Source of the DNA: an uncultured Rhodoplanes sp.
Lineage (GTDB): Bacteria; Pseudomonadota; Alphaproteobacteria; Rhizobiales; Xanthobacteraceae
Assembly (NCBI GenBank): GCA_964528635.1
Contig: CAZGSW010000004.1
Span: 5,667 to 37,666 of the forward strand
Reading direction: 5' to 3'
DNA: 32,000 nucleotides
Part shown: positions 3,950-26,881 of the stretch, piece after piece
Layout of the letters: each line of letters begins with the position of its first letter
How positions within the stretch are numbered: the first letter of the stretch is position 1
Notes under the pieces: generated by a model
What the model was told of the DNA's origin: nothing
Seen by the model: the letters and a program-made list of their open reading frames with translations, nothing else
The model's database searches: none
Program-made: the position numbers and the translations under genes

Positions 3950-4140
3950 TCACGCCGCCAAGGCTGGTTGTCCCCAGCATGGGGTATAGCGTTCCTCGGC
4001 TTCTGCCAGCGGGATGTTGCCGATTGGCTCAAGCAGCAGCCGGTTGTTGAACTAGTCCACTCATTCCAGCGTTGTGAACTCGACTGCTTCGAACGACCGC
4101 CACGGTTGACATGCTCCCCCAACATGCCCTCGGTCATAAG
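3950..4140 (-). pseudogene. IS3-family transposase (rve integrase) C-terminal remnant with in-frame stops
   Basis: Minus-strand reading gives ...PWRSFEAVEFTTLE*VD*FNNRLLLEPIGNIPLAEAEERYTPCWGQPALAA*. This matches the conserved IS3-family C-terminus (LEWVDWFNNRRLLEPIGNIPPAEAE). Both Trp positions are now stop codons (TGA 4061-4063, TAG 4052-4054). Confidence 0.65.
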
Positions 4141-4575
4141 GAGCATCTGTTCCAACTTTGCTCCTGATCGGGGCGTGCTGCGAACTCATTGGGCGTGAGA
4201 CCGTTCGGGCTCGTGTGCGGTCTGTTGGTGTTGTAGTCGATCCTCCATTCTTCGATGATCCGGCGCGCCTCATTGAGGATGCCGAACAGGTATTCGTTGA
4301 GGCACTCATCGCGCGGGCGCCCGTTGACGCTTTCCACCAACCCATTTCTGCATTGGTTTGCCGGACTCGGCGTAGTGCCATTCGATCGCACGCTCCTGCT
4401 GTCACGGTACACGACGTTGGAGGTGATCTCGCGGGTTCGTCCGAGAACTTCCTTCATCCAGTCGTGAAGCTGAAATGTGTGGACGCCCAAATCCTGCGAC
4501 GCCTGCATATACGACACGGCCAGGTCATTAATTGTCGGAGCCTCCTTGGATGTCGGAGCCTACTTGCCAATCTCA
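4134..4575 (-). pseudogene. internally deleted IS3-family element remnant (OrfA HTH fragment joined to an OrfB C-terminal fragment)
   Basis: 127-aa ORF. N-terminal SYMQASQDLGVHTFQLHDWMKE resembles the IS3 OrfA HTH. The C-terminal part NGLVESVNGRPRDECLNEYLFGILNEARRIIEEWRIDYNTNRPHTSPNGLTPNEFA resembles the IS3 OrfB end. The catalytic core between them is missing. An 18-nt tandem duplication lies at the upstream edge (4533-4561). Confidence 0.75.
4446..4521. repeat. left copy of a direct repeat (IS3 OrfA-derived) shared with 19133-19207
   Basis: Hand alignment with 19133-19207 gives about 80% identity over about 75 nt with one 1-nt indel, same orientation. Confidence 0.7.
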
Positions 4576-5247: not shown

Positions 5248-6387
5248 ATGCCAGAACAGTCCGCACATGGAGAACGAAGGGTGCGTCTCGATGAAAGTCC
5301 GACGCCACCGTCTTTTGAACAGGCGAAGACACGGCGTCAGCAGGCACGCGCCGCAGGACTGCACCCCGATCATTGGTATGCCGTCGAGTACGATTCCGCT
5401 CTCAAGGCCGGTTGCGTCATAGAAACCCACTTCTGGGGACGTTCGATCGCTTTGTTCCGGGGCGACGACGAGACCGTTCGGGCGATCGAGAACCGCTGTC
5501 TGCACCGTCAACTGAAGCTATCGCTCGGCGAAGTGAAGGGCTGCAACCTCGTGTGCGCGTATCACGGCTGGACGTACGACGGTTCCGGTAAGCTGGCAGC
5601 GGTTCCGCATGATCTGTTCGGTCACAAACAGCCTGCAGCCGGGCTGAGGTCCTTTCCGGTCAAGGTCCGATATGGACTGATCTGGATATTCCCAGGCGAT
5701 GCGCGGCTTGCCGACGCCACGCCGTTGCCGGATATCCCCGAACTCGAAGGTCCCGATGCCTGGGTCTGCGTGCCGCTCGATTTCACCTGGCAGGCGCACC
5801 ACTCGATGATCATCGAAAACGTCTGCGATTTCACGCACGCGCATCTGCATCGCGACTACCGGCCGATCAACGATGCGACACTGACGCTGCTCGAACCCGG
5901 CGAACGCCGCGTAAAACTCAGTTACGATGTGCTGGTGGGCGACGGCCAATTCTCCAGGCATTTCGTCGACCGCAACAAGGTCAAGGTCGACAAAATGGAA
6001 TTGTGCTTTGAGTACCCATATCAGTGGTCCAACACGGGCGACCGCATCAAGCACTGGTGCTTCTTTCTGCCAATCGACCGCCGGATCACTCGTGTCTTCT
6101 TTCTGTTCTATTTCGACGCGCTGCGAATTCCGGGAACGCATATTCCTATTCCGAAATGGCTGATGAAACCCGTTCTCAAAGCCGCCAACCGGATGATGAT
6201 CCGGCCGATCCTGATGCAGGATGGCGAAATGGTCGAGGCCGAGCAAAGGGCCTATGACTCGAACACGTCCGGTCCTGCAATCGAACTCAATCCCGCAGTT
6301 CTCGAATTCCAGAATCTGACGGTCCGCTCATGGCAACGGCATCTCGACGCCCCACAACTCCAACCGCGTGAGGCTCGTCTTGCGTAG
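5248..6387 (+). CDS. Rieske [2Fe-2S] non-haem-iron oxygenase; candidate sterol C-4 methyl oxidase (SdmA-like) by context
   Basis: 379 aa. Rieske motif CLHR-x16-CAYHGW. Mononuclear-iron region ENVCDFTHAHLH. First gene of a coupled operon with OSC and squalene epoxidase. Confidence 0.8.
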   Translation: MPEQSAHGERRVRLDESPTPPSFEQAKTRRQQARAAGLHPDHWYAVEYDSALKAGCVIETHFWGRSIALFRGDDETVRAIENRCLHRQLKLSLGEVKGCNLVCAYHGWTYDGSGKLAAVPHDLFGHKQPAAGLRSFPVKVRYGLIWIFPGDARLADATPLPDIPELEGPDAWVCVPLDFTWQAHHSMIIENVCDFTHAHLHRDYRPINDATLTLLEPGERRVKLSYDVLVGDGQFSRHFVDRNKVKVDKMELCFEYPYQWSNTGDRIKHWCFFLPIDRRITRVFFLFYFDALRIPGTHIPIPKWLMKPVLKAANRMMIRPILMQDGEMVEAEQRAYDSNTSGPAIELNPAVLEFQNLTVRSWQRHLDAPQLQPREARLA

Positions 6388-8380
6388 CGCCACCGTACCC
6401 AAACCGGTCGATAGCTCCTCGGATCTGGCAGCGGCGGCGCTTACGACACTTCAGAGGCAAGACGGCGGCTGGGAAGGTGAAGTCGTCTGGTGCCCAATCA
6501 TTACAGCCCAGGTTGTGATCTTGCATGTCATCGCAGACAAGCCAATCGCGGAAGAGCGGCGGCGTTTGCTGTTGAGACAGTTCGAGGTGACGCGCCGGCC
6601 TGACGGCGGCTGGGGATTGCATCCGGAATCGCACTCGTACCGATTTGTCACCACGTTGGTCTATGTCGCGGCGAGATTGCTTGGCGAGCCGCCGCACAGC
6701 CCGATGCTGAGCGAAGCGCGCGCATTGCTGGATCGCGAACCCGGCGGGATCTTCGGCCTGCCGCAGTGGGGCAAGGTGTGGCTTTCGTTCATCGGCCTGT
6801 TCGATCCGCGCGGACTGAAGCCGCTCCCGCCCGAGGTGTTCCTCCTTCCGCACTGGGCCCCGATCTCGCCGCAGCGGTATTATTGTCATACCCGCTACAT
6901 TTACCTGGTTATGTCGTACCTGGTTGGCTCGGGATACTCCGCAAACATCGGGCCTATCACCGACGAATTGCGCCGCGAACTCTTCGGTAATGCTCGCCCT
7001 GACGACGCGATCCGCCATCGTCATGATCTTGCATTGAGTGACTCCTACGTGCGTCCGAGCCGCATGCTTGTATCTCTATACGGTGCAATGTCCGCTTTTG
7101 GGAACATTGCAAAGTATCTGCCTGGGGCGGCGGCACTTCGACGCCGCGCGCTCGACACATGCATGAGGCAGATCGTTTTTGAACAGAGAAGCACAAACTA
7201 CCAGGGCATCTCTCCGGTAAGCAGCGTTCTGAACACGCTCGCGTTGCATGCGCAGGATGCGCACAGCGCGGATACCAGACACAGCTTCGACGGCATCGAA
7301 AGCTGGCGCTGGGACGACGAACACAGCGGCTCGCGCTATGCGGGCGCGCGCTCCACCACCTGGGATACCAGCTTTGCAATCCAGGCGCTGCTTGCAAGCG
7401 GGCACAAGACATCACTCAGGCACGCCGCATCATTGCGCCTCGCCTATCGGCGTCTGACCGAAATGCAGATGACGTCAGATCTTGACGGCGGCCGGGAGCA
7501 TGCGCGTGACACGATCCTGGGTGGCTGGTGCGTCAGCGATGGCACTCATCGATGGCCAGTCAGCGATTGCGCCGCCGAAGCGATCATCAGCCTGCTCGAT
7601 TGTCACGACGTGCCCGGATTGATCCCGGAACGCGACCGCTTGCCAGCATCCCGGCTGGATCAGGCTGCAGCCTTTATTCTCAGTCGGCAAAACGACGACG
7701 GCGGATTCGGCAGCTATGAGCGACGCCGCGGCGCCCGCTTCCTGGAACGGCTCAATCCATCGGAAATGTTCGGCCAGTGCATGACCGAACTGTCTTATGT
7801 CGAATGTACCGGCTCGTCGGTGCGCGCGCTCATCCGCCTGAAACGGCATGGTACGAATCTGCCTGCCTCGCAACTGCAGTCCGCCATCGATCGCGGACTA
7901 AGAATCATTTTGGATCGGCAGCGCCCGGATGGAAGTTGGCCGGGCTTTTGGGGCATCAATTTCATTTACGGCGCGCATTTTGCAGCCGCTGCGCTTGGCG
8001 AAGCCGGAGTCCCGCCCAGCCATCCCGCCCTGGCTCGAGCCGCCCGTTGGCTCAAGGGCGTCCAGCACGCGGACGGTGGCTGGGGCGAACACTTCTCCGG
8101 CTGCCTCGACGACACTTTCGTCGACCATCCCAGCAGTCTCATCAGCAGCACCGCATGGGCTTGCCTGACGCTGATGCATGTCGAACCAATTGTTTCGCCG
8201 GAACTGGAGCGAGGCATCGCATATCTGGTCGATCGTCAGCTCGAAGGGGGCGGCTTTCCGCGCGAAGGAGTCAACGGGGTGTTCTTTGGCACCGCCATGC
8301 TCGAGTACGCACTTTACAACAGCTACTTCCCGGCGATGGCGCTGGCGCAATTCGACAGGCTCCGCAATGGCAGACATTGA
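6368..8380 (+). CDS. oxidosqualene cyclase (lanosterol/cycloartenol-synthase type), not a squalene-hopene cyclase
   Basis: 670 aa. Catalytic motif WPVSDCAAEA is of the OSC VSDCTAE type, not the SHC DxDDTA type. OSC-type YYCHTRYIYLVMSYL. Several QW-type repeats (QNDDGGFGSYE, QRPDGSWPGFWG, QHADGGWGE, QLEGGGFPRE). GTG start at 6368 overlaps the upstream gene by 20 nt; the start is uncertain by a few codons. Confidence 0.9.
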   Translation: MRLVLRSATVPKPVDSSSDLAAAALTTLQRQDGGWEGEVVWCPIITAQVVILHVIADKPIAEERRRLLLRQFEVTRRPDGGWGLHPESHSYRFVTTLVYVAARLLGEPPHSPMLSEARALLDREPGGIFGLPQWGKVWLSFIGLFDPRGLKPLPPEVFLLPHWAPISPQRYYCHTRYIYLVMSYLVGSGYSANIGPITDELRRELFGNARPDDAIRHRHDLALSDSYVRPSRMLVSLYGAMSAFGNIAKYLPGAAALRRRALDTCMRQIVFEQRSTNYQGISPVSSVLNTLALHAQDAHSADTRHSFDGIESWRWDDEHSGSRYAGARSTTWDTSFAIQALLASGHKTSLRHAASLRLAYRRLTEMQMTSDLDGGREHARDTILGGWCVSDGTHRWPVSDCAAEAIISLLDCHDVPGLIPERDRLPASRLDQAAAFILSRQNDDGGFGSYERRRGARFLERLNPSEMFGQCMTELSYVECTGSSVRALIRLKRHGTNLPASQLQSAIDRGLRIILDRQRPDGSWPGFWGINFIYGAHFAAAALGEAGVPPSHPALARAARWLKGVQHADGGWGEHFSGCLDDTFVDHPSSLISSTAWACLTLMHVEPIVSPELERGIAYLVDRQLEGGGFPREGVNGVFFGTAMLEYALYNSYFPAMALAQFDRLRNGRH

Positions 8381-9701
8381 ATATGATGTCGTCATTGCCG
8401 GTGGCGGGATTGCCGGAGCGGCGGCCGCCGCCGCGCTTCGAGAATTCAATTTTTCCGTTCTGGTCGTCGAGCCCGGACAACATTCAGAGCGACGGCTTGG
8501 GGGCGAGTTGATTCATCCGGCTGGCGTGTCGGCGCTCAAGGAATTGGGGCTGTTCGACGAACGCGCCTTTGGCCGCGGGGTCTCAATCGCTGGCTTCGTT
8601 GCGCTGCCAGGTCTTCATGACGACTGGTCGGATATCCACCTGCCCTACGCAAGCGACTGGGGCCCTCGAAACGCAATCGCGCTGGACCACGGCACACTTC
8701 GAGCCACACTTTGGTCTGCGATCGAGGCTATGCCACATGTCACCACGATCCACGGCGGACGTGTGGTGGGCGTCGACAATTCGCCAACTTTTGTGCGGGT
8801 TGCGATCCAACAAGGGGCGCGGTCACATACCGTGACCGCACGGCTCCTGATCGCAGCCGACGGCGCATCCAGTGCGGTCCGCTCCCTTGCCGGAATAAAG
8901 CACAAGCGGCGCCCGATCTCCACGATCACAGGCTATCTGATCAGCGACGCCAATCTGCCCCATCCGGGCTTTGGTCACGTTTTCATGGGGGGCGCGGCCC
9001 CGTTGCTCGTCTACGAGATCGGCAACAGTCGCGCGCGAGTGCTGTTCGATCAACCTGTCGGGCAGTCTGCGGTACCTTGCCAGACACATCAGCGCCAGAT
9101 CGTTTCATGCGTGCCCTACCCCAGGCTTCGTGCCGAGATCGAAGCAGCCATGGCCGATCAGCGCGGCTTGCGTTTCGTCAGCGTCAATGTCGTTGTCGCG
9201 CGCTCAGCCCAGCACCGCATGGTGTTGATGGGCGATGCCGGAGGAAGCTGCCATCCGCTGACTGCGACCGGCATGACGGTCGGCATCATCGACGCTCTGC
9301 GGCTGCGCGACACCCTGCGATCCAGAAATCGGGACATTCCGGCTGCAATCGCCCTCTACGGTCGGCTTCGACGCGCACCGCAGCGGACGCGCCATCTGGT
9401 CGCTTCTGCTCTGCACGATGCGTGCAGCTCGACGGGCTCGGAGCAGATGTTGATTCGCGATGGTCTGGTTAACTACTGGCGGCGCAGTCCGCGCGGACGT
9501 CAGGCCAGCATGGCCATTCTGGCCATGAGCGATTACCGGATCGGGTCTGTGTTGCGCGAGATTCTGACGGTGATGAGCCATGGCATCGCGGCGCGATGGA
9601 CAGGCTGGTCGTTTGGCGGCGTCTTGCATGGACTCCGCATGATATCGGGCCTGACGGGAGTTCTGATACGCCAGGTCAGCTTCGCCATACGGGTTCGCTA
9701 G
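8367..9701 (+). CDS. squalene monooxygenase (squalene epoxidase), FAD-dependent
   Basis: ATG 8367 overlaps the OSC stop by 14 nt. FAD fold YDVVIAGGGIAGAAAAAAL. Also GGELIHPAGV, DGASSAVR and MGDAGGSCHPLTATGMTVGIIDA, as in squalene epoxidases. The 63 codons upstream in the ORF track overlap OSC and were not used. Confidence 0.85.
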   Translation: MADIEYDVVIAGGGIAGAAAAAALREFNFSVLVVEPGQHSERRLGGELIHPAGVSALKELGLFDERAFGRGVSIAGFVALPGLHDDWSDIHLPYASDWGPRNAIALDHGTLRATLWSAIEAMPHVTTIHGGRVVGVDNSPTFVRVAIQQGARSHTVTARLLIAADGASSAVRSLAGIKHKRRPISTITGYLISDANLPHPGFGHVFMGGAAPLLVYEIGNSRARVLFDQPVGQSAVPCQTHQRQIVSCVPYPRLRAEIEAAMADQRGLRFVSVNVVVARSAQHRMVLMGDAGGSCHPLTATGMTVGIIDALRLRDTLRSRNRDIPAAIALYGRLRRAPQRTRHLVASALHDACSSTGSEQMLIRDGLVNYWRRSPRGRQASMAILAMSDYRIGSVLREILTVMSHGIAARWTGWSFGGVLHGLRMISGLTGVLIRQVSFAIRVR

Positions 9702-9711
9702 AGGACACAGC

Positions 9712-10752
9712 ATGATTCTTGTAACCGGTGCGGCAGGACATCTCGGCGCAAATCTGCTGCGCCGTCTTCTGGCGGATGGCGAAACGGTTCGCATCATGCT
9801 CCGGACCGATGCTGAGCGCGCGACCGTCAATGGCCTGCCTGCCGGTATCGTCGTCGGCGATTTGCGCGATACGAACTTTGTCGCGGCAAGCACGCAAGGC
9901 TGCCGACAGATATTTCATTGCGCAGCGCGTGTCTCGACAGACCACAGAGGCAACAGCGACATCTTTGACATTAATGTTCTCGGCGCTCGCAACATCTTGA
10001 AGGCGGCACAGGCTGCCAAAATTGAGAAGGTGGTGGTTACGGGGTCCTTCAGTTCGGTCGGCATCCGCACCGATCGCGCCAGCAACGAGGACGATCCGTA
10101 CAATCCGCTGGACCCGCTGCTGCCCCAACAGTTGCCGTATTGGCGCACCAAGGCTGCCGTCGAGCACGAATGCCTCAAGGCTTTCGCCGAGGGTTTACCC
10201 GTGGTTGTCGCGATATCGACCGGCATTCTCGGTCCGAACGATTACAAGCCGTCTCGTATGGGACGGGTGCTGATCCGCTTCGCGCACGGACAGCTGAGGG
10301 CCTATATGCCCGGCGGAGTGCCCTTCGTCGCCGCCGATGATGTCGTTCAGGGCCACCTGCTGGCCATGCAGAAGGGTCGTCCGGGGCAACGCTACATTTT
10401 CTCGACCGCTGACATGACATTCGACGAATTGATGACAATCTATTCACGCGTTACCGGTCGTCGGGGTCCCCTGTTCCGGTTGCCTCCGTCCCTGATGACG
10501 GCGGCGGCGCATGCCGCCAGCGCACTCATGCCGTATGTCAACCCGCACGGCGAACAGCTTCTCACGCCTGCCGCAGTCCGTCTCCTTGCGCTGCATCGGC
10601 GCGCCGACACGTCGAAGGCGCAGCGCGAACTGGGATTTCGGCCGACCTCCATCGAGGTCGCCATAGAGCAGGCCTACAACTGGTTTTTGTCGCATGGAGT
10701 TATCGAGCCTCCGCCCGCGACCGCAAGCCGATCGGTGGAAGCATGGCGTTAG
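9712..10752 (+). CDS. NAD(P)-dependent extended SDR (3-beta-HSD / epimerase family); candidate sterol C-4 decarboxylase/reductase (SdmB-like) by context
   Basis: 346 aa. SD-like GAGGA upstream. Rossmann motif ILVTGAAGHLGANL. Catalytic YWRTK (YxxxK). Sits between squalene epoxidase and the flavoprotein in the coupled operon. Confidence 0.8.
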   Translation: MILVTGAAGHLGANLLRRLLADGETVRIMLRTDAERATVNGLPAGIVVGDLRDTNFVAASTQGCRQIFHCAARVSTDHRGNSDIFDINVLGARNILKAAQAAKIEKVVVTGSFSSVGIRTDRASNEDDPYNPLDPLLPQQLPYWRTKAAVEHECLKAFAEGLPVVVAISTGILGPNDYKPSRMGRVLIRFAHGQLRAYMPGGVPFVAADDVVQGHLLAMQKGRPGQRYIFSTADMTFDELMTIYSRVTGRRGPLFRLPPSLMTAAAHAASALMPYVNPHGEQLLTPAAVRLLALHRRADTSKAQRELGFRPTSIEVAIEQAYNWFLSHGVIEPPPATASRSVEAWR

Positions 10753-12002
10753 GAACGAAAGAGCATATTCACGACGTGTGCGTGGTCGGCGCAGGACCGG
10801 CGGGCGCGACCTGTGCCTATTATCTCGCACTCCATGGACGCGACGTCGTGATGCTGGAGCGCAAGGCGTTTCCCCGCGACAAGATCTGCGGTGACGCCGT
10901 GACCAGCCAGGCGCAAGTCCATCTGAGGCGGATGGGCGTACTGCAGCAGATCATCGACAACGACGAGGGGCACTTCGCTTCTGTCGGCGGCATGGTCAGC
11001 CCGGCTGGCTACAGTTACATCGCAAAATCGATCGATCACCTGGCATCGACCCAGGTTATTGCCATCAAACGCATGTTTCTCGACGTGCGGATTGCGCGGG
11101 CTGCCGAAACGGCAGGCGCATTGTTGGTCGAGGACTTCAACGTTGCTGACGCGGCATTCGATGCCGCATCTGGTGTCTGGACGATTTCGTCCGACGGCGC
11201 CAAGCACGCAATCCGTGCCCGCGCCCTTGTTGCGGCCGATGGAGCCCTGTCTCGCCTTGCACGGCGGCTGGGCTACGTGTCGGCACCGCCCGATGCGGTG
11301 TGCAGCCGGGCCTATGTGCGCGCCCGCACTACGAACTTCGATGCGGACGGCGTCGCCTACTATCCGAAGGATCTGCTACCTGGCTATTGCGCCATCTTTC
11401 GCGAGGCGCGCGATGAGTTGAATTTCTGCACCTACGTTATTCCAGGCGGCAATGCGATGGTCGACGACCTTCGCACAATGCACCACCGGATCTTGCGAGA
11501 CGATCATCATGTCCGCCGGGCGATCGGCCCCAATGCCGAGATTGACCCGATGAAGGGCGCGCCGCTCCGCTGCGGTGGTATCGAACGCAGCTATGGCGAC
11601 CACTTCGTCATCGTGGGAGATGCCGCCGGGCACATCGATCCTTTGACCGGCGAAGGCATCCAGTACGGCATGGACGCCGGCCAGTATGCGGCCGATACGC
11701 TGCACGAGGCTCTCGCAGCGGACGATTTGAGAGCACCGTCGTTGAAGGTCTATCAGGATCGTTGGGTGAAGCAGTTTGGACGCGACTTCGCCTGGTCGGC
11801 GTCCGTCGCCCGCATCTATTTGCGCTTCCCTGCCCTGCTCGATGCCAGTGCTCTGGCACTCCAGCGTCTTGGGCCCCCGTTGCTCGCGCGATGGGGGGAG
11901 ATCATGACAGGAGCGCGGCCAAAGACCGATTTCCTCAAGCCAGGCCTCTGGGCCCCCATCATGCGCGACCTGGTCGCGCTGCAGCTACGGTCTTCCACGT
12001 GA
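10743..12002 (+). CDS. geranylgeranyl-reductase-family FAD-dependent oxidoreductase; substrate unknown
   Basis: 419 aa. DVCVVGAGPAGATCAYYL (FAD), FPRDKICGDAV (GGR-type Cys motif), AADGALSRLAR, VGDAAGHIDPLTGEGIQYGMDAG. Overlaps the upstream gene by 10 nt and the downstream SMT by 4 nt. Confidence 0.8.
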   Translation: MALGTKEHIHDVCVVGAGPAGATCAYYLALHGRDVVMLERKAFPRDKICGDAVTSQAQVHLRRMGVLQQIIDNDEGHFASVGGMVSPAGYSYIAKSIDHLASTQVIAIKRMFLDVRIARAAETAGALLVEDFNVADAAFDAASGVWTISSDGAKHAIRARALVAADGALSRLARRLGYVSAPPDAVCSRAYVRARTTNFDADGVAYYPKDLLPGYCAIFREARDELNFCTYVIPGGNAMVDDLRTMHHRILRDDHHVRRAIGPNAEIDPMKGAPLRCGGIERSYGDHFVIVGDAAGHIDPLTGEGIQYGMDAGQYAADTLHEALAADDLRAPSLKVYQDRWVKQFGRDFAWSASVARIYLRFPALLDASALALQRLGPPLLARWGEIMTGARPKTDFLKPGLWAPIMRDLVALQLRSST

Positions 12003-13027
12003 GCACCCAGGACAAGGCCCCTGGTCTGGTCCAATTGCTGGGCAGGATGTCGCGGCGCGACCGCGTCTACCAGCGGACCGGCGAATATCTTGCCAGCCAT
12101 GGCGTTACGGCCGGCGCCGCCGGACGCGCCTCCCGCTACGCCGACGTAGTGAATGGCTACTTCGACCTCAGCACCGACTTTTACGAATTCGGGTGGGGTC
12201 AATCTTTTCATTTCGCCCAGCAGGCCAAAGGCGAAAATTTCCGGGATGCTATCATTCGTCATGAGCGCCGCCTGGTGGACACCTTGCAGCTTCGTCCCCA
12301 AATGACAGTGCTCGACGTCGGGTGCGGTGTCGGCGGTCCGATGCGCAACATTGCGCGAATGTCGGGCTGCTCGGTCGTTGGGATCAACAACAACACCTAT
12401 CAGGTGACCCGCGCCGGCCTGGCGAATGCTGACGCGGACCTGTCAGGCCGGTGCAGCGTTGTCCCGGGCGATTTCATGGCGATGGCTTTTCCGAACAGTT
12501 CGTTCGACGCAGCCTATGCCATTGAGGCGACCGTCCATGCTCCCGACTGGACAGGAGTCTTTCGCGAGGCCAACCGATGCCTGAAGCCTGGTGGCGGGTT
12601 TGCACTTTACGACTGGTGCATGACGGACCGGTATGACGACGGCAACTCATTTCATCGCGATCTGAAGCAGCGCATTATCGAGGGCAACGGCCTTGTCGAC
12701 ATCGGCACGTCGCAGCAATTGATTGCAGCAGTCCGTGCGGCCGGTTTCGAGATCATCGAACACCGCGATGCGGCAAGCGACGGCGGGGAGCCGTGGTATC
12801 AGCCGCTGGCACAGAGCGGACTATCGCTGTCATCGTTTCGTGCGTCGGTTTTCGGACGCAAATTGACGCGAGCTGCCCTGCAAACGATGGAGCTGCTCCG
12901 GCTTGCACCGGGCGGAGCTGCCGATATGGTGACCTTCCTCGACAAGGCGGCCGTGGCTTTGGTCGATAGCGGCAGAGCCGGTGTCTTTACACCGATGTAC
13001 TTTGTTCACGCTCGAAAGCGCGATTGA
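11999..13027 (+). CDS. sterol C-24 methyltransferase (ERG6/SMT family)
   Basis: SMT signature regions are present: YFDLSTDFYEFGWGQSFHFA, SAM site VLDVGCGVGGPMRNIARMSGCSVVGINNNTYQV, AYAIEATVHAP, LKPGGGFALYDWCMTDRYDDGNSFHRDLKQRIIEGNG. The start is either GTG 11999 (GTGA overlap with the upstream stop) or ATG 12047. Confidence 0.9.
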   Translation: MSTQDKAPGLVQLLGRMSRRDRVYQRTGEYLASHGVTAGAAGRASRYADVVNGYFDLSTDFYEFGWGQSFHFAQQAKGENFRDAIIRHERRLVDTLQLRPQMTVLDVGCGVGGPMRNIARMSGCSVVGINNNTYQVTRAGLANADADLSGRCSVVPGDFMAMAFPNSSFDAAYAIEATVHAPDWTGVFREANRCLKPGGGFALYDWCMTDRYDDGNSFHRDLKQRIIEGNGLVDIGTSQQLIAAVRAAGFEIIEHRDAASDGGEPWYQPLAQSGLSLSSFRASVFGRKLTRAALQTMELLRLAPGGAADMVTFLDKAAVALVDSGRAGVFTPMYFVHARKRD

Positions 13028-13124: not shown

Positions 13125-16100
13125 TCACCGGACCCGTCGACAGTTGCTTCCGGCTACCGGATATGGCGACGGAAACGTCGATGTGCTGGCGACGCCCATA
13201 ATCGAGTAGCTGACAGAGGTGCAGATATATTGGCCCGCGGCAGTCGGCTGACGCTGGCCAGGCGGGCGATGCACTGGAGGTGGACGGCGAACCTCCTGCG
13301 GCGTGGTGCAATTCCACCGGCCATTGCCGGCATAGCTTGTAGCGCGTGAGCGGACATGAACTTGCGTCTGACAGGCCCGATGACCGTCCGCCCAGGTGGG
13401 TGGCCTGCACTTGCGGTCGCGCATGACGTAACCGCCGCTGCATCCGCACTTATAGGTCGAGTTGGGATTGACAGCCATGGCATAGGCCTTGGTCCCGAAT
13501 TCGGTTTGGCATACCGGGTGTCCATCGGCGATCGTCTTTGGCCGCTGAACACAAACGGCAAGAATTTTGTCCAAGACGTAGCCGCTGTTGCATAGGCACA
13601 TCGGAGAAGCCGACATGGCCGTCGCCGGATCGATGTGGGCATTCGTACCGATCTGGAGCTTGCAGCGGTTATCCAAATCCGCGATTTTTTCGTTCTTTTC
13701 ACGATCCCGGCAGGTGCTGAGGGCCTGTATGAGGCGTTGCTTGACGCCACTGGCCGCCGGATTTGAGACTTCTTCCAGCGCCGCCCGCCAGCGCTCGATG
13801 CCCTCGACTTTGCAGGCGGTGACGGCCTGTTCGGCGTTGTTGATAGCGGTGCGAAGCTGGTCGATCCGGCTCAACGCGTTCGTCAGACGCTCGCGCAACT
13901 CGGCGCAGGAGGTGCCGTTCAGGCTTGCAAGCGCGCGCCGCGTCGTACTTTCGGCGGCGCTCAGATCTCCTGCGGCGAAACTTGCCCTGGCTCGCTCAAA
14001 GGCTGCGCTGGCATGGGTAATGGTCTCGCCTTTGGTGAACAGAGAAGTCAGCATCAGATGGGAGATGGATGCGTAACGATCCTTGAGACGGGCCACCTCC
14101 GTTGAGTCGCAGCGACCGATCGCACCGCTCACTTCCGACATGATGCTATCCAGGCGTTCGACCCTGGACATTCCTGTGGCGACCTTTCCAGCAAGTGCGA
14201 TGCAATCGACGCCATTGCCAATCCCGTCCAGCGCGGTTCTCGCGCGTCCTAGATCGGCCCTGGCGTCGTCCATTTTTCCGGCGTTGTAGGCCTGCTGCGC
14301 ATTTGCATAGGCGGCTTGCGCCTGGCTGACCGCTGCGGCGATCGGCTCGAGTCTGGCAATCTGTTCCCTGGCCGCATCGGAGCCATCGTCACGCAGCTTT
14401 GCCAGAATGTCGGCGTTCTGTTGCGGCTGGCAGGTCAGAGCAGCCACGGGCTTTGGTTTCAGCCATGCTTCGTTGAAGGCGACAAGTGCCTCGGCGGCGC
14501 ATCGCTCCATGCGAGCGATGGCTTCGCTCGTCGTCGATCTGATCGCATCGGGATCGAGCGTTGGCGACTGGGCTGCGGTTTCCGGGAGCGCAGGTACCGC
14601 TGCTCCGGCCGGGCATTTCGCGTCGATCCGGGCGATCACGCCACGCAATGCGTCCGGCGGCGGACTGAGGATCATGCTTCTTGACTGCCACGGCGCCATA
14701 TTCCTTGGCGCGCCATCCCCGCGGGGCGGGTCGATATCCTCTTTGGTCCAGCTTTCCTGAATCAGGGCATTGCACCCGATGTTGCTTGAGTTTCTCGTCA
14801 GCAGGCCGGCCAGGATCGTGCGCGGGCGCTCCCCGGCCGGCGACGCGGCAAGAGGCTGGAGGCAGGTCTTGATATCGTCGATGGACACCTTCACCGGCTG
14901 TTGCAGGTCGAAGACGTGCTTTTGCGCATCAGCCATGGCGCTGTGCGCGACCGTAAACCGGCCTCGGGCGCTGCCAAACTCACCGACGATACCATCGAGT
15001 TCACTTCGTATCGCGGCGAGCCGGGATTGCACCTTGGCACGCGCAGCAATCGCTAGCGCCGACGACGGCGGCGGTTGGGCGGCGCTATCGCTCGCCTTGA
15101 GGCCTGCAATTTCGCCGGCACCGGCCGTCAGTTCTCGTGCGACTATCTGCGCTTCGCGGGCGGTGGCAAGCGCGTCGTCCAGGTGAGCGCGCGCTTCCGC
15201 CTTGTTCTTGGCTTTACGGATTTCCTCCGGCGCAGCACAAACGGACTCCACCGCAGCATTCAACGCCGCGCTGTCCCTGGCGACTGACGCAGCGAGCCTC
15301 GCCGATTTCGCCGCATTGTCGCTGGCGGTCGTGTCCGGCGCCGGCAATTCGCACGCCGATGTATCCATTAATTCCAATCGCATGCGCAGATTGCTAGTCC
15401 GCGCCGACAGGTTGCCGCCGACCTCGAGTGCCTGCCGGGCCATAAGCTTGTTCTGCTCGTACCGTGAACAGTAATTGGCAATTCGGTGAGAAAGGCTTGC
15501 AATATGGTTCAGGTCGCCGTCGATCGCGGCCAGCGTTTCATCAAGTTTCTTTTCGAGCTCGAGAAGCTGCGCAGACAGTCCGTCCCATTGCTTGTCATCG
15601 AGCAAAGAGCCCGCAAGTTCATTCAGGCGGGCGTCCGTCAACGCGCCCGCAATTTGAGCCACCTCGGACATTTCCTTGTTCATCTCGGCCAGCTGAGGTT
15701 CAATGGCCTGCCCTATGGTCCTGCGCTGCGCGGCGATTTGGCGTGCCTTGGCGGCAATCCATCCGACCGGTGTCGACGCGTGGGGAAGTCCGCGTCGGTT
15801 GGCTTCAAGGAACTCCTTCAGGGCAAGGCCTTTATCGATGTCCATCTCTTGCGCCTGGTTGCCGAACTCGAACATGGCGGAAAATTTCGCATTCACGATG
15901 CAACCGTCGAAGGCCTCATAGGCGTCCGCGACATTGGTGGTGCGCGCGTATTCTTCCTTGTATTTGTCGATGCAGGGGCCGTCGCCGTGCGTCCAACTCG
16001 TCCGCAGGTAATTGGTGCCCCACTCGATCAGCGCAAATTCGGCATCGACAAGTTTGAGATAGATGTCGCCGGGAGTCAGCGCCGCCATTTTTGATGCAAA

Positions 16101-17129
16101 CAGATCTTGGGCCATTTTGGACGGCAAAAAATCGCCAATAGTGGCGGCACCTTTGCTGAGATCACCGAACCGGCTCGTCTTGCCAGCCTTGTTGACCTTT
16201 CCGGCAAAGCCGCCAATGCCGGCGACGCCGCCGAGATTATTCATAGTTGTCAGGGTGGAATTGAAATCATAGTTGTTGGCACTGAACGCAAAATTGATGG
16301 CGGCTTTCATGAGATCGCGGGTTTGGGCTTTGCCTTCCGCTTTCAATTCTTCGGTTATGATTTTCATGGCGTCGCTGCCGGATCCGCCATTTTTGAGCGC
16401 CAGCAATACGCGCTTGGCGGCGCCGGCATGTTTGACACCCCGGTCCCAGATGACCTTTGCATTGACCATCTTTTTTTCCTTGAGGACATCGCTCACGATG
16501 GTGGCGAAACTCAGCGCGCCCAAGTCGGCGCCGTGATCCACCACGGTGTAGTAGTCGCCAGCCGAAAGCGCGCCGGCAATTTCTCCCATTGCCGACGGGT
16601 TGGCCTTGATTGCGTCGTAAATGGCCCGCGCATACTTCGCTTTATAAGCTTCGATCAGGCTGGGTTTCGTGCGCTTTATCTCTTCGTCGATCAATTGACC
16701 GAGCGGTTTTCCCTTGCCTGACGCAAGCACCGCGCTGCCATCTGCCGCCCTGTCAAAAATGCGACTGGTCACAGAAGCCTTGTCGCGCTCCATTCGGTCT
16801 CTTGTAAAGATCCGCCGCTTCAGGTCTTCGGCCTTTTTCCGGGCTTCCGACTTTTCCAGGGTCTTCACGACGGCGGCATGGGCGGTCGTCAATTCCTGGC
16901 GCATCCACTCCAGCACCTGATCATGCTGGCTGGAATTGAGCATCTTGATCGGGTCACCGGCGTTACGCAGGTTGTCGCCGGGACTGGAGCTCCTGCCCAG
17001 CAAGTTCATCAACGTTTCGGCGAATGTCGCCCGCGGCAGCGCCGGGCAACTATTGGCAGCCTGCGACGAGTTGACGGGCCAACAGACAATTCCGATCGCC
17101 AGTAATGATACCAAACTTTTCAAGCGCAT
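13125..17129 (-). CDS. very large secreted protein: N-terminal unknown domain, long Ala-rich helical repeat region, Cys-rich C-terminal modules
   Basis: 1334-aa uninterrupted ORF. Signal peptide MRLKSLVSLLAIGIVCWPVNSSQA. Internal ~70-aa repeats (AQAAYANAQQAYNAGKMDDARADLGRARTALDG...C versus ASAAFERARASFAAGDLSAAESTTRRALASLNG..C). C-terminal CxC-x2-GYV modules. Starts 13 nt after the upstream gene. Confidence 0.8.
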   Translation of the reverse strand: MRLKSLVSLLAIGIVCWPVNSSQAANSCPALPRATFAETLMNLLGRSSSPGDNLRNAGDPIKMLNSSQHDQVLEWMRQELTTAHAAVVKTLEKSEARKKAEDLKRRIFTRDRMERDKASVTSRIFDRAADGSAVLASGKGKPLGQLIDEEIKRTKPSLIEAYKAKYARAIYDAIKANPSAMGEIAGALSAGDYYTVVDHGADLGALSFATIVSDVLKEKKMVNAKVIWDRGVKHAGAAKRVLLALKNGGSGSDAMKIITEELKAEGKAQTRDLMKAAINFAFSANNYDFNSTLTTMNNLGGVAGIGGFAGKVNKAGKTSRFGDLSKGAATIGDFLPSKMAQDLFASKMAALTPGDIYLKLVDAEFALIEWGTNYLRTSWTHGDGPCIDKYKEEYARTTNVADAYEAFDGCIVNAKFSAMFEFGNQAQEMDIDKGLALKEFLEANRRGLPHASTPVGWIAAKARQIAAQRRTIGQAIEPQLAEMNKEMSEVAQIAGALTDARLNELAGSLLDDKQWDGLSAQLLELEKKLDETLAAIDGDLNHIASLSHRIANYCSRYEQNKLMARQALEVGGNLSARTSNLRMRLELMDTSACELPAPDTTASDNAAKSARLAASVARDSAALNAAVESVCAAPEEIRKAKNKAEARAHLDDALATAREAQIVARELTAGAGEIAGLKASDSAAQPPPSSALAIAARAKVQSRLAAIRSELDGIVGEFGSARGRFTVAHSAMADAQKHVFDLQQPVKVSIDDIKTCLQPLAASPAGERPRTILAGLLTRNSSNIGCNALIQESWTKEDIDPPRGDGAPRNMAPWQSRSMILSPPPDALRGVIARIDAKCPAGAAVPALPETAAQSPTLDPDAIRSTTSEAIARMERCAAEALVAFNEAWLKPKPVAALTCQPQQNADILAKLRDDGSDAAREQIARLEPIAAAVSQAQAAYANAQQAYNAGKMDDARADLGRARTALDGIGNGVDCIALAGKVATGMSRVERLDSIMSEVSGAIGRCDSTEVARLKDRYASISHLMLTSLFTKGETITHASAAFERARASFAAGDLSAAESTTRRALASLNGTSCAELRERLTNALSRIDQLRTAINNAEQAVTACKVEGIERWRAALEEVSNPAASGVKQRLIQALSTCRDREKNEKIADLDNRCKLQIGTNAHIDPATAMSASPMCLCNSGYVLDKILAVCVQRPKTIADGHPVCQTEFGTKAYAMAVNPNSTYKCGCSGGYVMRDRKCRPPTWADGHRACQTQVHVRSRATSYAGNGRWNCTTPQEVRRPPPVHRPPGQRQPTAAGQYICTSVSYSIMGVASTSTFPSPYPVAGSNCRRVR

Positions 17130-20563: not shown

Positions 20564-20714
20564 GTCACTATATGCACATGCACATGCACCCTGCCCTGCT
20601 CTGTCTGGCCACGTACTCCGACTATCGGGACTTATCGTTACACACCACGATCAATTCCAGTTACGCACGGCGCTGAGCCCCATGCACTGACTGCGTGCCC
20701 CTTTTGAAATCCAA

Positions 20715-20746
20715 TAGGGCGCGGGTGTACCGCGCCCTATTTTTTT
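20715..20746 (+). terminator. Rho-independent terminator
   Basis: Perfect 10-bp stem TAGGGCGCGG / CCGCGCCCTA (20715-20724 and 20730-20739), 5-nt loop GTGTA, followed by T7 (20740-20746). Confidence 0.65.
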
Positions 20747-20885
20747 GACCGCGCCCGAGGGTTTGTGGACAATTCGTCTTCGATAACCCGCGATTCTGCC
20801 GGCGTTGCGTGTCTCCAATACCTGGGCGAGCCCGCTGCATCAAAGCCGAACACATTGATTCGAAGAGGTGGTGGATTGAGAAGAT

Positions 20886-20945
20886 GATCGCCTCCAGCGA
20901 CACCTTGGCCTTGAACTCAGACGTAAACCGTCTCGGCGTTCGCAT
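20886..20945 (-). pseudogene. IS3-family OrfA N-terminal remnant (about 20 codons)
   Basis: MRTPRRFTSEFKAKVSLEAI matches the conserved IS3-family OrfA start (RRFTxEFKAKVxLEAL). Similarity ends abruptly afterwards. Confidence 0.55.
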
Positions 20946-21068: not shown

Positions 21069-22166
21069 TTAAGTATTTGATATCGCTAGCCCGCAGGGTA
21101 GCGGTGCAGGACTCGGCTTGTGTCCGTGCAAAAGACGACAAAACTCGGCAAAGATCAGGTTCCAGGATGCCACCCCATGCATCCTGATCCAAAACCGCAG
21201 TACATCCCGAACGCAATCTCTCAACGGTCGGTTTAGCGCCGTCGCCACCTGCTCCCATTCATGCCGGATGCTGAGCCAAGTCTGTTCATCGACATCTTCA
21301 ACAGCAAGGGTGTGGGCTACATCTGGGTGCCGGGCACCGCGTGCATACCGGGAATGAAACGCGCGAACAAAACCCTGCATAGCGTCAGCCCGCTTCACGC
21401 AATCGCCACCAATTTGAAGCGATTGTCGGAGAGCCGTATCCACTTCACCACGCAGCGCGGCTAGCCAGCACTCCGCGATCTGCTTTCCTTTGCCAAACCC
21501 GCATGCAGATAACGCCTCATTCACTCCTATCGCGCCGCCTATGATGCCTACCTGAAGAGACGCTTGCGCACGCCCAACCCACCCGTCGGAACCGCAGGCC
21601 AAGATTTCAAGCGCCCTGTCTTCATAATTCACACGGTGAGCGATGCATCTCGTTCGCAAGTCAGCCACAACTTCCCCGATGGGAGACGGGATCATTTCGT
21701 AAACCTGACATCGAGACTTGATGGCGGCACTCACCTTCATCATATCGGACGATAAAAACACAGCCACATGAAGCTCGATTTTCTCAAGCGGCTTCAGCAG
21801 CCGGTCCGATACTGGTCCCGGCAGGCACTCCGCGTTTCGCACAACCAAAACGAGGGGCTCCATCCCTACCGAACGAAGCTTGGTCAGTTGGTCACGAACG
21901 TGATCGTGTGAATGGTGCACTCGCGCGTCAAGCTCAATGTAACGCAGGGATCCGGCTGCCATAACCCCCTGGCAGTTCGAGCAAACACCGCATGGCTTTG
22001 TGGGCGATTGGCAAAGCACGCTCTTTGCGTAGAGCCTTGCAAGGCTCAATTTACCGGAGCCCTCGGGCCCCCATAGCATGAGGGGCCGATGCTTGCCGGC
22101 CGCGCTGCGCTCAAGCAAGGCCGCTACCACCACTTTCTGTCCGACGACATCGTTGAAATGCTTCAT
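21069..22166 (-). CDS. clamp-loader delta-prime (HolB)-like AAA+ protein with a degenerate ATP site
   Basis: 365 aa. FNDVVGQ, P-loop GPEGSGKL (Thr/Ser replaced by Leu), zinc module CQSPTKPCGVCSNC, Walker-B position LVLVVRNAE (no DE), retained SRC motif (KSRC). ATGA overlap with the upstream gene. Confidence 0.8.
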   Translation of the reverse strand: MKHFNDVVGQKVVVAALLERSAAGKHRPLMLWGPEGSGKLSLARLYAKSVLCQSPTKPCGVCSNCQGVMAAGSLRYIELDARVHHSHDHVRDQLTKLRSVGMEPLVLVVRNAECLPGPVSDRLLKPLEKIELHVAVFLSSDMMKVSAAIKSRCQVYEMIPSPIGEVVADLRTRCIAHRVNYEDRALEILACGSDGWVGRAQASLQVGIIGGAIGVNEALSACGFGKGKQIAECWLAALRGEVDTALRQSLQIGGDCVKRADAMQGFVRAFHSRYARGARHPDVAHTLAVEDVDEQTWLSIRHEWEQVATALNRPLRDCVRDVLRFWIRMHGVASWNLIFAEFCRLLHGHKPSPAPLPCGLAISNT

Positions 22167-23299
22167 TCTGTCGACGCAGCCGACTGAACATCTTGACCCG
22201 ACAGCAAGGCGGCAACATTCGACGAGGAACCAAGCTCGCTGGCGCTCCTAGCGCACGCACCTACAACCGCCTCAAACAACGAACGCCTCCTCTTTCCCAA
22301 GGCCGTTTCGAATTCGCCTCCAAACAAAGCATTCTTGAAACTCGAGGGCTCCCGCAACCATTCTTCGTCGTCGGTGGCCATGTGGTCACGGCACAGTCGC
22401 TCTACCGCAGGAACGAGCGGAGACGTTAAAAGCACACGCTCGCTCAACATCAATCGCAAAGCCCAGGAAATATACCGAGCCGGCGGCCCCAGTTTCTGCT
22501 TGTTGCGCCGATACCGCCTGTCCGTGCCGCAAATGGCCTTTTCGGTCGCGGAGTACAGCTCCGCGAGTATCGCAGAATTTGTCCTTAGTTTTTCCGTCTT
22601 CATGACATCGACCGCCTGCAGCAGCCGCCGAATTTGCAAATGCCCTCGGTCTTCAAGGAAATCCATGACGCATTCGTTGAGAACTTCGCCGCGGAGACTT
22701 CTTCGTTTGTTTGAGAGCTGGCTCGCGAAGGTCGGCGACAGGATTGTCATGTCGACCAGTTTCGCAATCTCCCCCAGCGACCATGACTTGTCCGCCAAGG
22801 TGGAACGAAGGATTCTAAAAGCGACCGCGTGAGCATTTCGGAACTGATCGTAGCCATTCCGCCGAACCAAAAACTCAAAGATTTCTTTCACATTGGATTT
22901 CGATACCCGGGGCTCCTCGATGATGACCGCGTTTGCTGCGGCGCTGGTCCATATTTCCGAAGATGCTTCATCGTCGTGGGCCCGAACAAAAATGCAAAAT
23001 GAACTCAATCGCCCGTTCAGCGCTATCACGTTTAAGGCTTCTACCAAAACTGCGTTTCGGCGCTCCGTTCCGACATCACACATCGCAAGCGTTTCACCGA
23101 AGAGGCCATCAACACTTAGTAGCTTCAGCGACAACTCGCTCGGCACCACAGTCTCCGCCATGACATGGCACGCCTCGGCCTCTTCAAGGATCCGCTCGCG
23201 AACGGGCGCCTTGAGATACCCGCTTCGGTAGCGATAAATGACCCGTATTCCGGGATGTGGGGAGGGATCCGACAGAAATCGAACATCAGACGTATTCAT
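22163..23299 (-). CDS. hypothetical protein; possible clamp-loader delta (HolA)-like subunit
   Basis: 378 aa with no P-loop. Size and position lie between the DnaX-like and delta-prime-like genes. Delta-like landmarks by eye: IRVIYRYRSGYLKAPVRERILEEA, DGLFGETLAMCDV, PRVSKSNVKEIFEFLVRRNG. Overlaps the upstream gene by 14 nt and the downstream gene by 4 nt. Confidence 0.7.
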   Translation of the reverse strand: MNTSDVRFLSDPSPHPGIRVIYRYRSGYLKAPVRERILEEAEACHVMAETVVPSELSLKLLSVDGLFGETLAMCDVGTERRNAVLVEALNVIALNGRLSSFCIFVRAHDDEASSEIWTSAAANAVIIEEPRVSKSNVKEIFEFLVRRNGYDQFRNAHAVAFRILRSTLADKSWSLGEIAKLVDMTILSPTFASQLSNKRRSLRGEVLNECVMDFLEDRGHLQIRRLLQAVDVMKTEKLRTNSAILAELYSATEKAICGTDRRYRRNKQKLGPPARYISWALRLMLSERVLLTSPLVPAVERLCRDHMATDDEEWLREPSSFKNALFGGEFETALGKRRRSLFEAVVGACARSASELGSSSNVAALLSGQDVQSAASTE

Positions 23300-25268: not shown

Positions 25269-25392
25269 GCAGTTACCATATCGTGCTTAGCATTGTGGCT
25301 GCCAGCGCGGTACTGATCGCACCGGCAAGGAGGCCCGTCGCACGGGCCGACCGTCTCACATACCGAAGCGTCGCGAAATGGTTCATCAGCAG

Positions 25393-25647
25393 CTACCCCC
25401 GCAATGAGGGCACTGCCGAAAAAGTTTCCGCAGGCGCCGGTGGCCCGCCTTCGGGCGGATGCACGCCGACGCATCCGGCCGCAGCAGCGTTAAGGGCGGC
25501 CTGAGGCCCCGCACCGTCGCGGTGCAGGGGGCCAGGCTTGCCCATTTCATCGAGCCCGAGAAGACCGTACTCGCGGCGCAGACGTGCCCGAATCTCGGGA
25601 TCGTCGATCTTGATGAGATCCCGTTGGAGAGCGGCAAAATTATTCAT
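25393..25647 (-). CDS. hypothetical small protein (84 aa), weak call
   Basis: ATG 25647 overlaps the upstream stop by 8 nt. Product is MNNFAALQRDLIKIDDPEIRARLRREYGLLGLDEMGKPGP... Its 3' end overlaps a competing 69-aa ORF (25265-25474). Confidence 0.35.
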   Translation of the reverse strand: MNNFAALQRDLIKIDDPEIRARLRREYGLLGLDEMGKPGPLHRDGAGPQAALNAAAAGCVGVHPPEGGPPAPAETFSAVPSLRG

Positions 25648-26218: not shown

Positions 26219-26258
26219 GAAATGGTTCTTTCGATTAATGGTTATGGTTCGCTGCTCG

Positions 26259-26537: not shown

Positions 26538-26854
26538 AATGGCCTCCACTGTTATGGAGCGCCACGACCCGCCGGGTCAGTAAAAGCGGCTCCTATACAT
26601 ATAGAGATTTGGAGGCCTACCTTCGCACCTGAATCGAAAATAATTTTTTGGCGTTCAATATTTGGTAGGTGCTCTCCCGTGGAACGCTATTAATTGATGC
26701 CTATTCGGAGCTAGCGGCTGCTTAGTGAGCAGGTCTTGGCACGCTTGGAAAACGCGGTCCTTAGTCGTCAAGGACTGGCGGTCGGACGCTCGGCTGACCA
26801 CGGCCCGTGTCCGAATCCTTGCAGCCCCATCGTAATTTTCGCCGGATGAAGACT

Positions 26855-26881
26855 GAATTCTCCGCCCGGTCAGGAGAATTC
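26855..26881 (+). promoter_or_regulatory. perfect 9-bp inverted repeat covering the SD of the PD-(D/E)XK gene (RNA hairpin or operator)
   Basis: GAATTCTCC (26855-26863), 9-nt spacer, GGAGAATTC (26873-26881). The right arm contains the AGGAGA SD and ends 1 nt before ATG 26883. Confidence 0.35.

Follow-up and report, generated by a model that had tools for sequence, protein, structure and literature searches.

Genes of the sterol operon

The window analyzed here is a stretch of 32,000 nt (32 kb) from contig CAZGSW010000004.1 of an uncultured Rhodoplanes sp. Six co-directional open reading frames (ORFs) fill positions 5248-13027 of its plus strand. We read them as a sterol operon with genes for a Rieske oxygenase similar to SdmA, an oxidosqualene cyclase (OSC), a squalene epoxidase (SQE), an extended short-chain dehydrogenase/reductase (SDR) similar to SdmB, a flavoprotein of the GGR superfamily and a sterol C-24 methyltransferase (SMT). 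Coordinates of these genes and of other features of the window are given in Table 1.

Table 1. Sterol operon genes and other features of the 32-kb window (positions are counted from the first letter of the window)
Feature	Position	Strand	Remarks
SdmA-like Rieske non-haem-iron oxygenase	5248..6387	+	379 aa; 368 aa with start GTG 5281
Oxidosqualene cyclase, predicted lanosterol synthase type	6368..8380	+	
Squalene monooxygenase (epoxidase), FAD-dependent	8367..9701	+	
SdmB-like extended SDR, predicted C-4 decarboxylase / 3-ketoreductase partner of SdmA	9712..10752	+	
SdmB-GGR junction, site of the ~4.5 kb block of relatives	10743..10752	+	blastn colinearity with L001 and L003 on both sides
GGR-superfamily FAD flavoprotein, 'clade W', putative sterol side-chain C=C reductase	10743..12002	+	
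Sterol C-24 methyltransferase (SMT)	11999..13027	+	342 aa from GTG 11999
IS3-family transposase remnant	4134-4517	-	rve_3, E = 2.4e-19; 0.7 kb upstream of operon
94-aa ORF beginning MRTPRRFTSEFKAKV	20661-20945	-	IS3 OrfA N-terminus-like by eye; 7.6 kb downstream of operon
Gabija anti-phage system	28740-32000	-	downstream of operon

All gene starts are inferred. With ATG 5248, GTG 6368, ATG 8367, ATG 9712, ATG 10743 and GTG 11999, neighboring genes overlap by 20, 14, 10 and 4 nt, and one pair is separated by a 10-nt gap. The OSC gene has an alternative start, TTG 6380, with GAGG upstream; it gives a protein of 666 aa, as in the gene call on the related metagenomic contig L079, and shrinks the first overlap to 8 nt. 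Sequences resembling a Shine-Dalgarno site lie upstream of the starts of SdmB (AGAGGA) and GGR (GGTGGA). The length of SMT counted from GTG 11999 agrees with the lengths of its orthologs in the related loci L001 (342 aa) and L079 (341 aa). No recognizable sigma-70 promoter site for the operon was found in the window, and terminator-like sites in the window are fewer than expected by chance. The ORF listing returned the same six coordinates and strand as the initial annotation of this sequence and, given the inferred starts, the same junctions. That annotation also spoke of a bacterial chromosome, which is not shown: a protein identical to the window GGR is on record (NCBI and Logan) on a 45-kb contig only.

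The cyclase matched Pfam domains SQHop_cyclase_N and SQHop_cyclase_C (158 and 175 bits). Among NCBIfam models, osq_cycl (TIGR03463) scored 772 bits vs 204 bits for hopene_cyclase, while TIGR01787 scored 443 bits, above its cut-off of 322.7. In comparison with structures, human OSC 1W6K scored 363 bits and squalene-hopene cyclase (SHC) 126 bits. The catalytic Asp is found in VSDCAAEA (residue 398), which aligns with human VSDCTAEA (D455), not with the SHC-type DxDD; His232 (human numbering) is kept, with YYCHTRY aligned to human LWCHCRQ. Both motifs quoted in the initial annotation, VSDCAAEA and YYCHTRYIYLVMSYL, are present in the protein, and its choice of OSC over hopene cyclase agrees with the profile scores and the comparison with 1W6K. 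A hopanoid cluster (SHC with HpnA) was considered and rejected, as the cyclase is clearly of the OSC type. At human positions 381/449/453 the window OSC has A/H/V, the same signature as the OSC from the 21-kb sterol cluster of Calothrix sp. NIES-4105, which makes lanosterol in E. coli (Lee et al. 2023, Nat Commun, PMC10202945). Among bacteria, a full correlation was found between Val453 and production of lanosterol and between Ile453 and that of cycloartenol (PMC4919349). Based on this rule and on the signature shared with the lanosterol-making Calothrix enzyme, we predict lanosterol as the product of the window OSC.

The squalene epoxidase was recognized by the Pfam SE domain PF08491 (78.1 bits vs a cut-off of 20.1) and by FAD_binding_3 (61.5 bits). 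It has the dinucleotide-binding motif GGGIAG at residue 12, and its gene is colinear with the SQE genes of relatives (61-68% identity).

Genes of a Rieske oxygenase and an SDR were initially taken as a C-4 demethylation pair of the SdmA/SdmB type; best profile matches and the identity of both proteins to the Calothrix pair (locus L012; 59% for SdmA and 52% for SdmB) bear this out. The Rieske protein has Pfam domains Rieske (69 bits) and VanA_C (42 bits). Its best NCBIfam match, by a wide margin, is NF052579 (4beta-methylsterol monooxygenase SdmA; 358.8 bits, E = 2.6e-107), a model named for the Methylococcales enzyme. The iron motifs CLH...CAYH (CxH...CxxH) and DFTHAHLH (DxxHxxxH) are located at residues 84 and 194. 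The SDR has Epimerase and 3Beta_HSD Pfam domains and the motifs GAAGHLG (GxxGxxG, residue 6) and YWRTK (YxxxK, residue 143); its best NCBIfam match is NF052578 SdmB with 264.5 bits, and HpnA is near with 248.1 bits. Since profile separation from HpnA is poor, we base the predicted SdmB identity on the operon in which the gene lies and on the Calothrix enzyme, to which the protein is similar. In E. coli, Calothrix SdmAB removes both C-4 methyls from lanosterol directly (PMC10202945). As lanosterol itself is accepted, C-14 demethylation is no prerequisite, and lack of CYP51 (see below) does not block the pathway.

The last gene product matched Sterol_MT_C (PF08498) with 68.7 bits vs a cut-off of 21.7, along with class I methyltransferase domains. 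Region I reads YEFGWGQSFHF, in line with YE[YF]GWG, with Tyr at position 81 and Phe at position 83; the SAM motif is VLDVGCGVG. A PDB search with the window SMT matched no genuine SMT structure. In a 2025 preprint Brown and Welander reportedly linked residue 249 and the Region I Phe to the number of successive methylations.

In six of the six operon proteins all cofactor and catalytic motifs examined are intact. Profile matches and motifs together confirm the initial reading of the locus as a sterol operon with OSC, SQE, a C-4 demethylation pair and SMT. Its gene set is real; the novelty implied for it was overstated, since SMT clusters with sdmAB, erg1 and erg7 had been published from metagenome-assembled genomes (MAGs). 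These clusters, from metagenomic contigs and MAGs, join erg1, erg7, sdmA, sdmB and erg6 (SMT) (Brown, Olagunju, Giner & Welander 2023, Nat Commun, PMC10070321); the core of SQE, OSC, sdmA, sdmB and SMT is shared by the window. In Supplementary Data 1, at least two of the published clusters list homologs of erg11 (CYP51) and erg24, both of which are absent from the window. Conversely, the window operon has a GGR-family gene, of which PMC10070321 and its supplements make no mention. Many bacterial SMTs were shown in the same work to methylate desmosterol in vitro.

Each of the six window genes has a homolog in the Calothrix cluster: SQE, OSC (42% identity), SdmA and SdmB (identities given above), a GGR-family protein (53%) and an adjacent methyltransferase. 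Gene order differs from that of the window, and the cluster additionally has genes for CYP51, a C-8 isomerase, a C-14 reductase-like protein and a KshA-like Rieske protein. The Calothrix methyltransferase (L012:11302-12180, between the GGR-family gene and SdmB) belongs to class I; over part of its length it is similar (45%) to the catalytic domain of SMT and, unlike the window SMT, is devoid of Sterol_MT_C. The abbreviated sterol pathway of Methylococcus capsulatus (PMC13277303, PMC10202945) shares with the window a Rieske and SDR pair for C-4 demethylation and lanosterol as the cyclization product (a predicted one in the window). It differs in having CYP51 and an NTF2-type 8,14-reductase (8,14-Bsr), in removing only one C-4 methyl and in lacking SMT.

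Predicted pathway and the four-gene block of related operons

A scan of one genome per species produced 78 loci (loci are numbered with prefix L). The nearest relatives of the window are L001 and L003, MAGs of uncultured Alphaproteobacteria with GGR identity of 75-76%; three metagenomic contigs, L079 and L080 (both with P0007) and the P0002 contig, are similarly close. The window and L001/L003 are colinear, with 67-71% nucleotide identity, over SdmA-OSC-SQE-SdmB and again over GGR-SMT (blastn).

Between these two colinear parts, all close relatives (L001, L003, L079, L080 and the P0002 contig) have ~4.5 kb that are absent from the window. The block includes genes for CYP51, an EXPERA/EBP::Rieske fusion, an EBP-type protein and an ERG4/ERG24 reductase. 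The P450 gene of the block codes for a genuine CYP51 (it scores 355 bits against 6MCW, the M. capsulatus CYP51, and is 54% identical to the Calothrix C-14 demethylase). Together the block genes form a coherent set for demethylation at C-14, reduction of Delta14 and isomerization of Delta8, which explains why these functions are absent from the window. Absence of a CYP51-type C-14 demethylase, C-14 reductase and C-8 isomerase had already been stated in the initial annotation; tblastn searches with proteins of the relatives likewise found no homologs of CYP51, ERG24 or EBP anywhere in the 32-kb window. The window junction is clean and retains no remnant of the block; SdmB has its conserved C-terminus VEAWR*, with which the GGR start shares 10 nt.

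Adjacencies SdmB-CYP51 and ERG4/24-GGR recur in L002 and L004, in Rokubacteria (L016, L017, L020 and L029) and in Gemmataceae (L011 and L013). Of the two adjacencies, Calothrix (L012) shares SdmB-CYP51. In a neighbor-joining tree of GGR proteins the window branches next to the L001/L003 group but outside it; L002 and L004, which are more distant, also carry the block, and the window is the sole short form in the clade. In five of the six proteins, L001, L003 and L079 resemble one another more than they resemble the window; SQE is equivocal, and L079 has no complete SdmA. A single loss is more parsimonious than several gains, because the adjacencies recur in distant lineages and because the window falls outside L001/L003 while the block is present in L002/L004. 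Judging from these sequence comparisons, the window operon is most likely a reduced derivative whose lineage lost the block as one unit. In the ancestral operon, sdmB and the GGR gene would have been separated by genes for CYP51, a C-14 reductase and proteins of the C-8 isomerase type. We consider it probable that the six genes constitute a functional sterol biosynthesis operon of alphaproteobacterial origin, reduced from a longer operon.

In the proposed pathway, the epoxidase would convert squalene to 2,3-oxidosqualene, which OSC would cyclize to lanosterol. SdmA would then oxidize a C-4 methyl, with SdmB decarboxylating the product and re-reducing C-3, so that one or both C-4 methyls are removed. 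SMT would methylate C-24 of the Delta24 side chain, and the flavoprotein may finally reduce a double bond of the side chain. We observe the gene identities, the intact motifs, the synteny with relatives and the missing block; we infer the order of steps, the numbers of methyls removed and added, the substrate of the GGR-family protein and the final product. The operon alone predicts C-4-demethylated, 24-alkyl sterols with a 14-alpha-methyl group and a Delta8 bond, unless genes of the block are present elsewhere in the genome.

If they are, the operon would be a part of a pathway leading to a 24-alkyl sterol with a fully processed nucleus, an alternative that we regard as rather unlikely. The window covers 32 kb of a roughly 45-kb contig, and sterol genes are dispersed in several sterol-producing bacteria, e.g. 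Enhygromyxa salina; moreover, clusters of the type found in Acetobacteraceae have a different, non-CYP51 P450 at another cluster position. Against this, every close relative keeps the block genes in the operon, exactly at the junction where the window lacks them. No fragment of the block genes is present in the window, and relocation would need a deletion together with a separately retained copy.

The Acetobacteraceae-type clusters (L008:11252-12730; L006, L010, L014, L038 and L064) have the order SdmA-SdmB-SMT-OSC-x-SQE-GGR with a conserved P450 gene right after GGR. This P450 is only 26% identical to Calothrix CYP51; it may be a diverged 14-demethylase or else a sterol P450 of another kind. 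That Acetobacteraceae might hold an identical 'six-gene minimal module' was considered and dismissed, as these clusters also carry the conserved non-CYP51 P450.

The EXPERA/EBP::Rieske fusion (L001:6814-8427; also in L003, L079 and L002) is conserved in long-form operons, where it is situated beside a stand-alone EBP gene. Its Rieske part is a paralog of SdmA (~50% identity); Rokubacteria carry two tandem SdmA paralogs instead. To our knowledge, no function has been described for this fusion.

Some related clusters have further genes. A gene for an amine-oxidase-like flavoprotein (PF01593) follows SMT in L001 (12277-13524), L079 (11333-12604) and L080, and such genes are found in the L002 and L081 (L081:4543-7220) clusters as well; the gene after SMT on the P0002 contig is unannotated, and none was detected in L003. 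On contigs of the P0010 type there are, in addition, genes for a FAD_binding_4 (DHCR24-like) protein and a FA_hydroxylase. Products of the amine-oxidase-like, DHCR24-like and FA_hydroxylase genes are candidates for extra sterol-modifying steps.

The GGR-family flavoprotein

The flavoprotein scored 170 bits with TIGR02032 (GG-red-SF), above the cut-off of 158.8; the second NCBIfam match, MenJ (122.7 bits), is an isoprenoid reductase. An AlphaFold2 model (pLDDT 88.6) had Thermoplasma GGR 3OZ2 as the top Foldseek match (TM 0.71-0.75), with flavin halogenases and FixC nearly as close. Like the epoxidase, the protein has an intact GxGxxG motif. Redox Cys49 (KICGDAV) is kept and is conserved across a group of homologs, designated clade W, of 404-458 aa with at least 45% identity between members. 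In 65 of the 65 clade-W members examined, Y-x-[AS]-x-F-[RK] or a close variant replaces the canonical substrate-positioning motif YxWxFP. One speculative possibility is that Ala or Ser in place of Trp makes room in the active site for side chains alkylated at C-24. A regular-expression scan of all fetched loci found only one canonical YxWxFP GGR, an archaeal protein in L077.

Clade-W genes are present in sterol clusters of Alphaproteobacteria, Acidobacteriota, Rokubacteria, Planctomycetota, Myxococcota and Calothrix. In ~25 loci from at least six phyla, the gene is located beside SMT or other sterol genes; it adjoins SMT in the window and in at least 15 related loci, and ERG4/24 in others. Clade-W loci of archaea (Asgard, Bathyarchaeia) are L018-L044 and L070, and those of Spirochaetota are L034, L058, L068 and L075. 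No sterol genes were found within 10 kb of these archaeal and Spirochaetota homologs, and neighbors checked in two of the loci are unrelated.

Superfamily chemistry and synteny, not orthology, make the role of a side-chain C=C reductase a well-motivated inference for the clade-W protein. Candidate substrate bonds are Delta24(25), Delta24(28) and Delta25(27). The initial annotation was right about the family and assigned no role to the protein, though sterol C-24 reduction by a member of the GGR family had been published (PMC12004948). A role of the window protein as the NTF2-type 8,14-Bsr was ruled out, as that enzyme belongs to an unrelated family.

The characterized enzyme, Bsr of Sandaracinus amylolyticus (AKF09143), is a GGR-family protein that reduces Delta24 of zymosterol and desmosterol (Lee & Welander 2025, PMC12004948). 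It shares with the window protein the superfamily (both are FAD proteins), the redox Cys and the sterol-cluster context. Homologs of Bsr are reported to keep the YxWxFP motif (PMC12004948), in place of which Y-x-[AS]-x-F-[RK] is found in clade W; Bsr homologs listed with coordinates in Table S2 are ~365-387 aa long vs 404-458 aa in clade W. By gene order in L012 (SdmA 115380, CYP51 115381, SdmB 115382, methyltransferase 115383), the clade-W gene of Calothrix can be identified as Ga0263810_115384, which is present in Table S2 as a 'bsr homolog' with 24% identity to Bsr (E = 9e-17). Protein searches were made with the window protein and with a Polyangiales clade-W member. The best 120 matches of either query included none of the named myxobacterial, Lichenifustis and Nonomuraea isolates of Table S2; for the Polyangiales query, these matches were metagenomic clade-W proteins only. 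Compared with published clusters, two features of the window are new: an operon reduced by its ring-processing module, and a GGR gene from a clade distinct from the characterized Bsr.

The clade-W protein might instead act on the sterol as a flavin monooxygenase, a halogenase-like enzyme or one of the desaturase type, or it might reduce another isoprenoid and only travel along with the clusters. In sequence and fold, flavin-dependent halogenases and FixC are about as near to it as archaeal GGR is; both the substrate-clamping Trp and the Pro of YxWxFP are replaced in all 65 members examined, no sterol genes lie near the members from Asgard archaea and Spirochaetota, and similarity of the Calothrix member to Bsr is low, as stated above. 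We find such a function unlikely, given that the window protein exceeds the curated threshold of the GGR superfamily with an isoprenoid reductase as the second match, that the redox Cys is conserved and the top fold match is a GGR, that clade-W genes stand beside SMT or ERG4/24 in sterol clusters of at least six phyla, and that Lee & Welander listed the Calothrix member among bsr homologs (PMC12004948).

A reductase role can be combined with the operon structure into a broader proposal, which we put forward as tentative. Clade W would be a second lineage of bacterial sterol side-chain reductases, independent of Bsr and paired with SMT, and the operon would be a self-sufficient route to 14-alpha-methyl, 24-alkyl sterols with saturated side chains in an uncultured soil alphaproteobacterium.

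Several points weigh against the proposed reading of the operon and of clade W. Functions of both are predicted from sequence. Three profile scores are below their thresholds: OSC with 772 bits does not reach the trusted cut-off of 851 for TIGR03463, and SdmA (358.8 bits) and SdmB (264.5 bits) are well below the Methylococcales-based equivalog cut-offs of 600 for NF052579 and NF052578; the competing HpnA score of the SdmB protein is also below its own cut-off. In the window GGR the canonical YxWxFP is missing, with YCAIFR aligned to GYIWVFP of 3OZ2, and homologs with 46-51% identity and the same altered motif exist in archaea and spirochaetes without sterol genes nearby. By sequence, the window GGR is not an ortholog of Bsr; this test is indirect, via the Calothrix clade-W member. 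Window OSC, SdmA, SdmB and SMT are 2-5 identity points further from outgroups than the proteins of long-form relatives, while the window GGR is not further and SQE differs by at most 4 points; such faster divergence of these four sequences would fit mildly relaxed selection or adaptation following the loss. The SdmB-GGR junction itself could conceivably be an error of MAG assembly. Finally, cyp51, erg24 and EBP genes could be located elsewhere in the genome, of which 32 kb are visible.

Steranes with alkylated side chains serve as fossil markers of eukaryotes, an inference that is weakened by bacteria making 24-alkyl sterols de novo (PMC10070321). The window operon extends this known theme and does not overturn current understanding: soil Alphaproteobacteria carry compact operons that combine a cyclase, the bacterial C-4 demethylase pair, SMT and a candidate reductase. 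If clade W is indeed a side-chain reductase and the operon is self-sufficient, it would be a bacterial source of precursors of side-chain-alkylated steranes. The operon can also be viewed as a natural 'deletion mutant' for C-14 demethylation, Delta14 reduction and C-8 isomerization. It would make a convenient minimal construct with which action of SdmAB and SMT on 14-methyl substrates and the function of the clade-W protein could be addressed.

Origin and surroundings of the operon

The order of events could also be reversed, with the six-gene form being ancestral and the block of CYP51, EBP::Rieske, EBP and ERG4/24 genes inserted later in the relatives. The clean junction agrees with such an order, and sterol genes have been transferred horizontally among bacteria (PMC12004948). 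Distant lineages, however, share the SdmB-CYP51 and ERG4/24-GGR adjacencies, and since the window is the only short form in its neighbor-joining clade, an ancestral short form would require repeated identical insertions; we consider this scenario very unlikely.

Decay of the operon into a non-functional remnant after loss of the block appears improbable too: slightly faster divergence of window OSC, SdmA, SdmB and SMT from outgroups, the IS3 remnant upstream, the region resembling a defense island downstream and the failure to find a recognizable sigma-70 promoter would fit such decay, but six full-length ORFs with overlapping or coupled junctions and all examined catalytic and cofactor motifs intact speak against it, as does the absence of rate acceleration in GGR and SQE.

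The initial annotation suggested horizontal acquisition of an operon 'bracketed by IS scars' (IS, insertion sequence). The upstream scar is real: the IS3 remnant includes the last ~53 residues of the integrase core, fused to a short N-terminus resembling a helix-turn-helix. The downstream candidate is the 94-aa ORF, which is 7.6 kb away from the operon and has no Pfam match at E <= 1. Recent acquisition itself was not supported by any island signal. GC, GC3 and tetranucleotide content do not set the operon apart from its flanks; no tRNA genes were found in the window, and repeats flanking the operon are at chance level only. Vertical descent followed by a deletion would explain the colinearity with alphaproteobacterial relatives equally well.

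Among the window genes compared, GC3 is highest (0.77, vs ~0.69 in the operon) in the gene for a hybrid histidine kinase / response regulator at 256-2184 of the minus strand. An ORF of 1334 aa (13125-17129, minus strand) converges on the 3' end of the operon and occupies the place where L001, L079 and L080 have the gene for the amine-oxidase-like flavoprotein; no significant Pfam or PADLOC family was found for it.

Further downstream, two clamp-loader-like AAA+ genes (DNA_pol3_delta2; 21069-22166 and 23286-25268) are situated around a 378-aa gene without an assigned family, and a PD-(D/E)XK_13 nuclease gene is located at 26883-27842. With these genes, the region 21069-27842 looks like a defense island; its PADLOC matches are weak. 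In the Gabija system, GajB (UvrD-like helicase, 28740-30659) scored 832 bits. GajA (OLD/TOPRIM ATPase, 30656-31891) scored 547 bits, matched only the C-terminal half of the profiles and is thus N-terminally incomplete; the gene probably runs on beyond the window end. With Gabija and the other defense-like genes downstream, the neighborhood of the operon looks variable.

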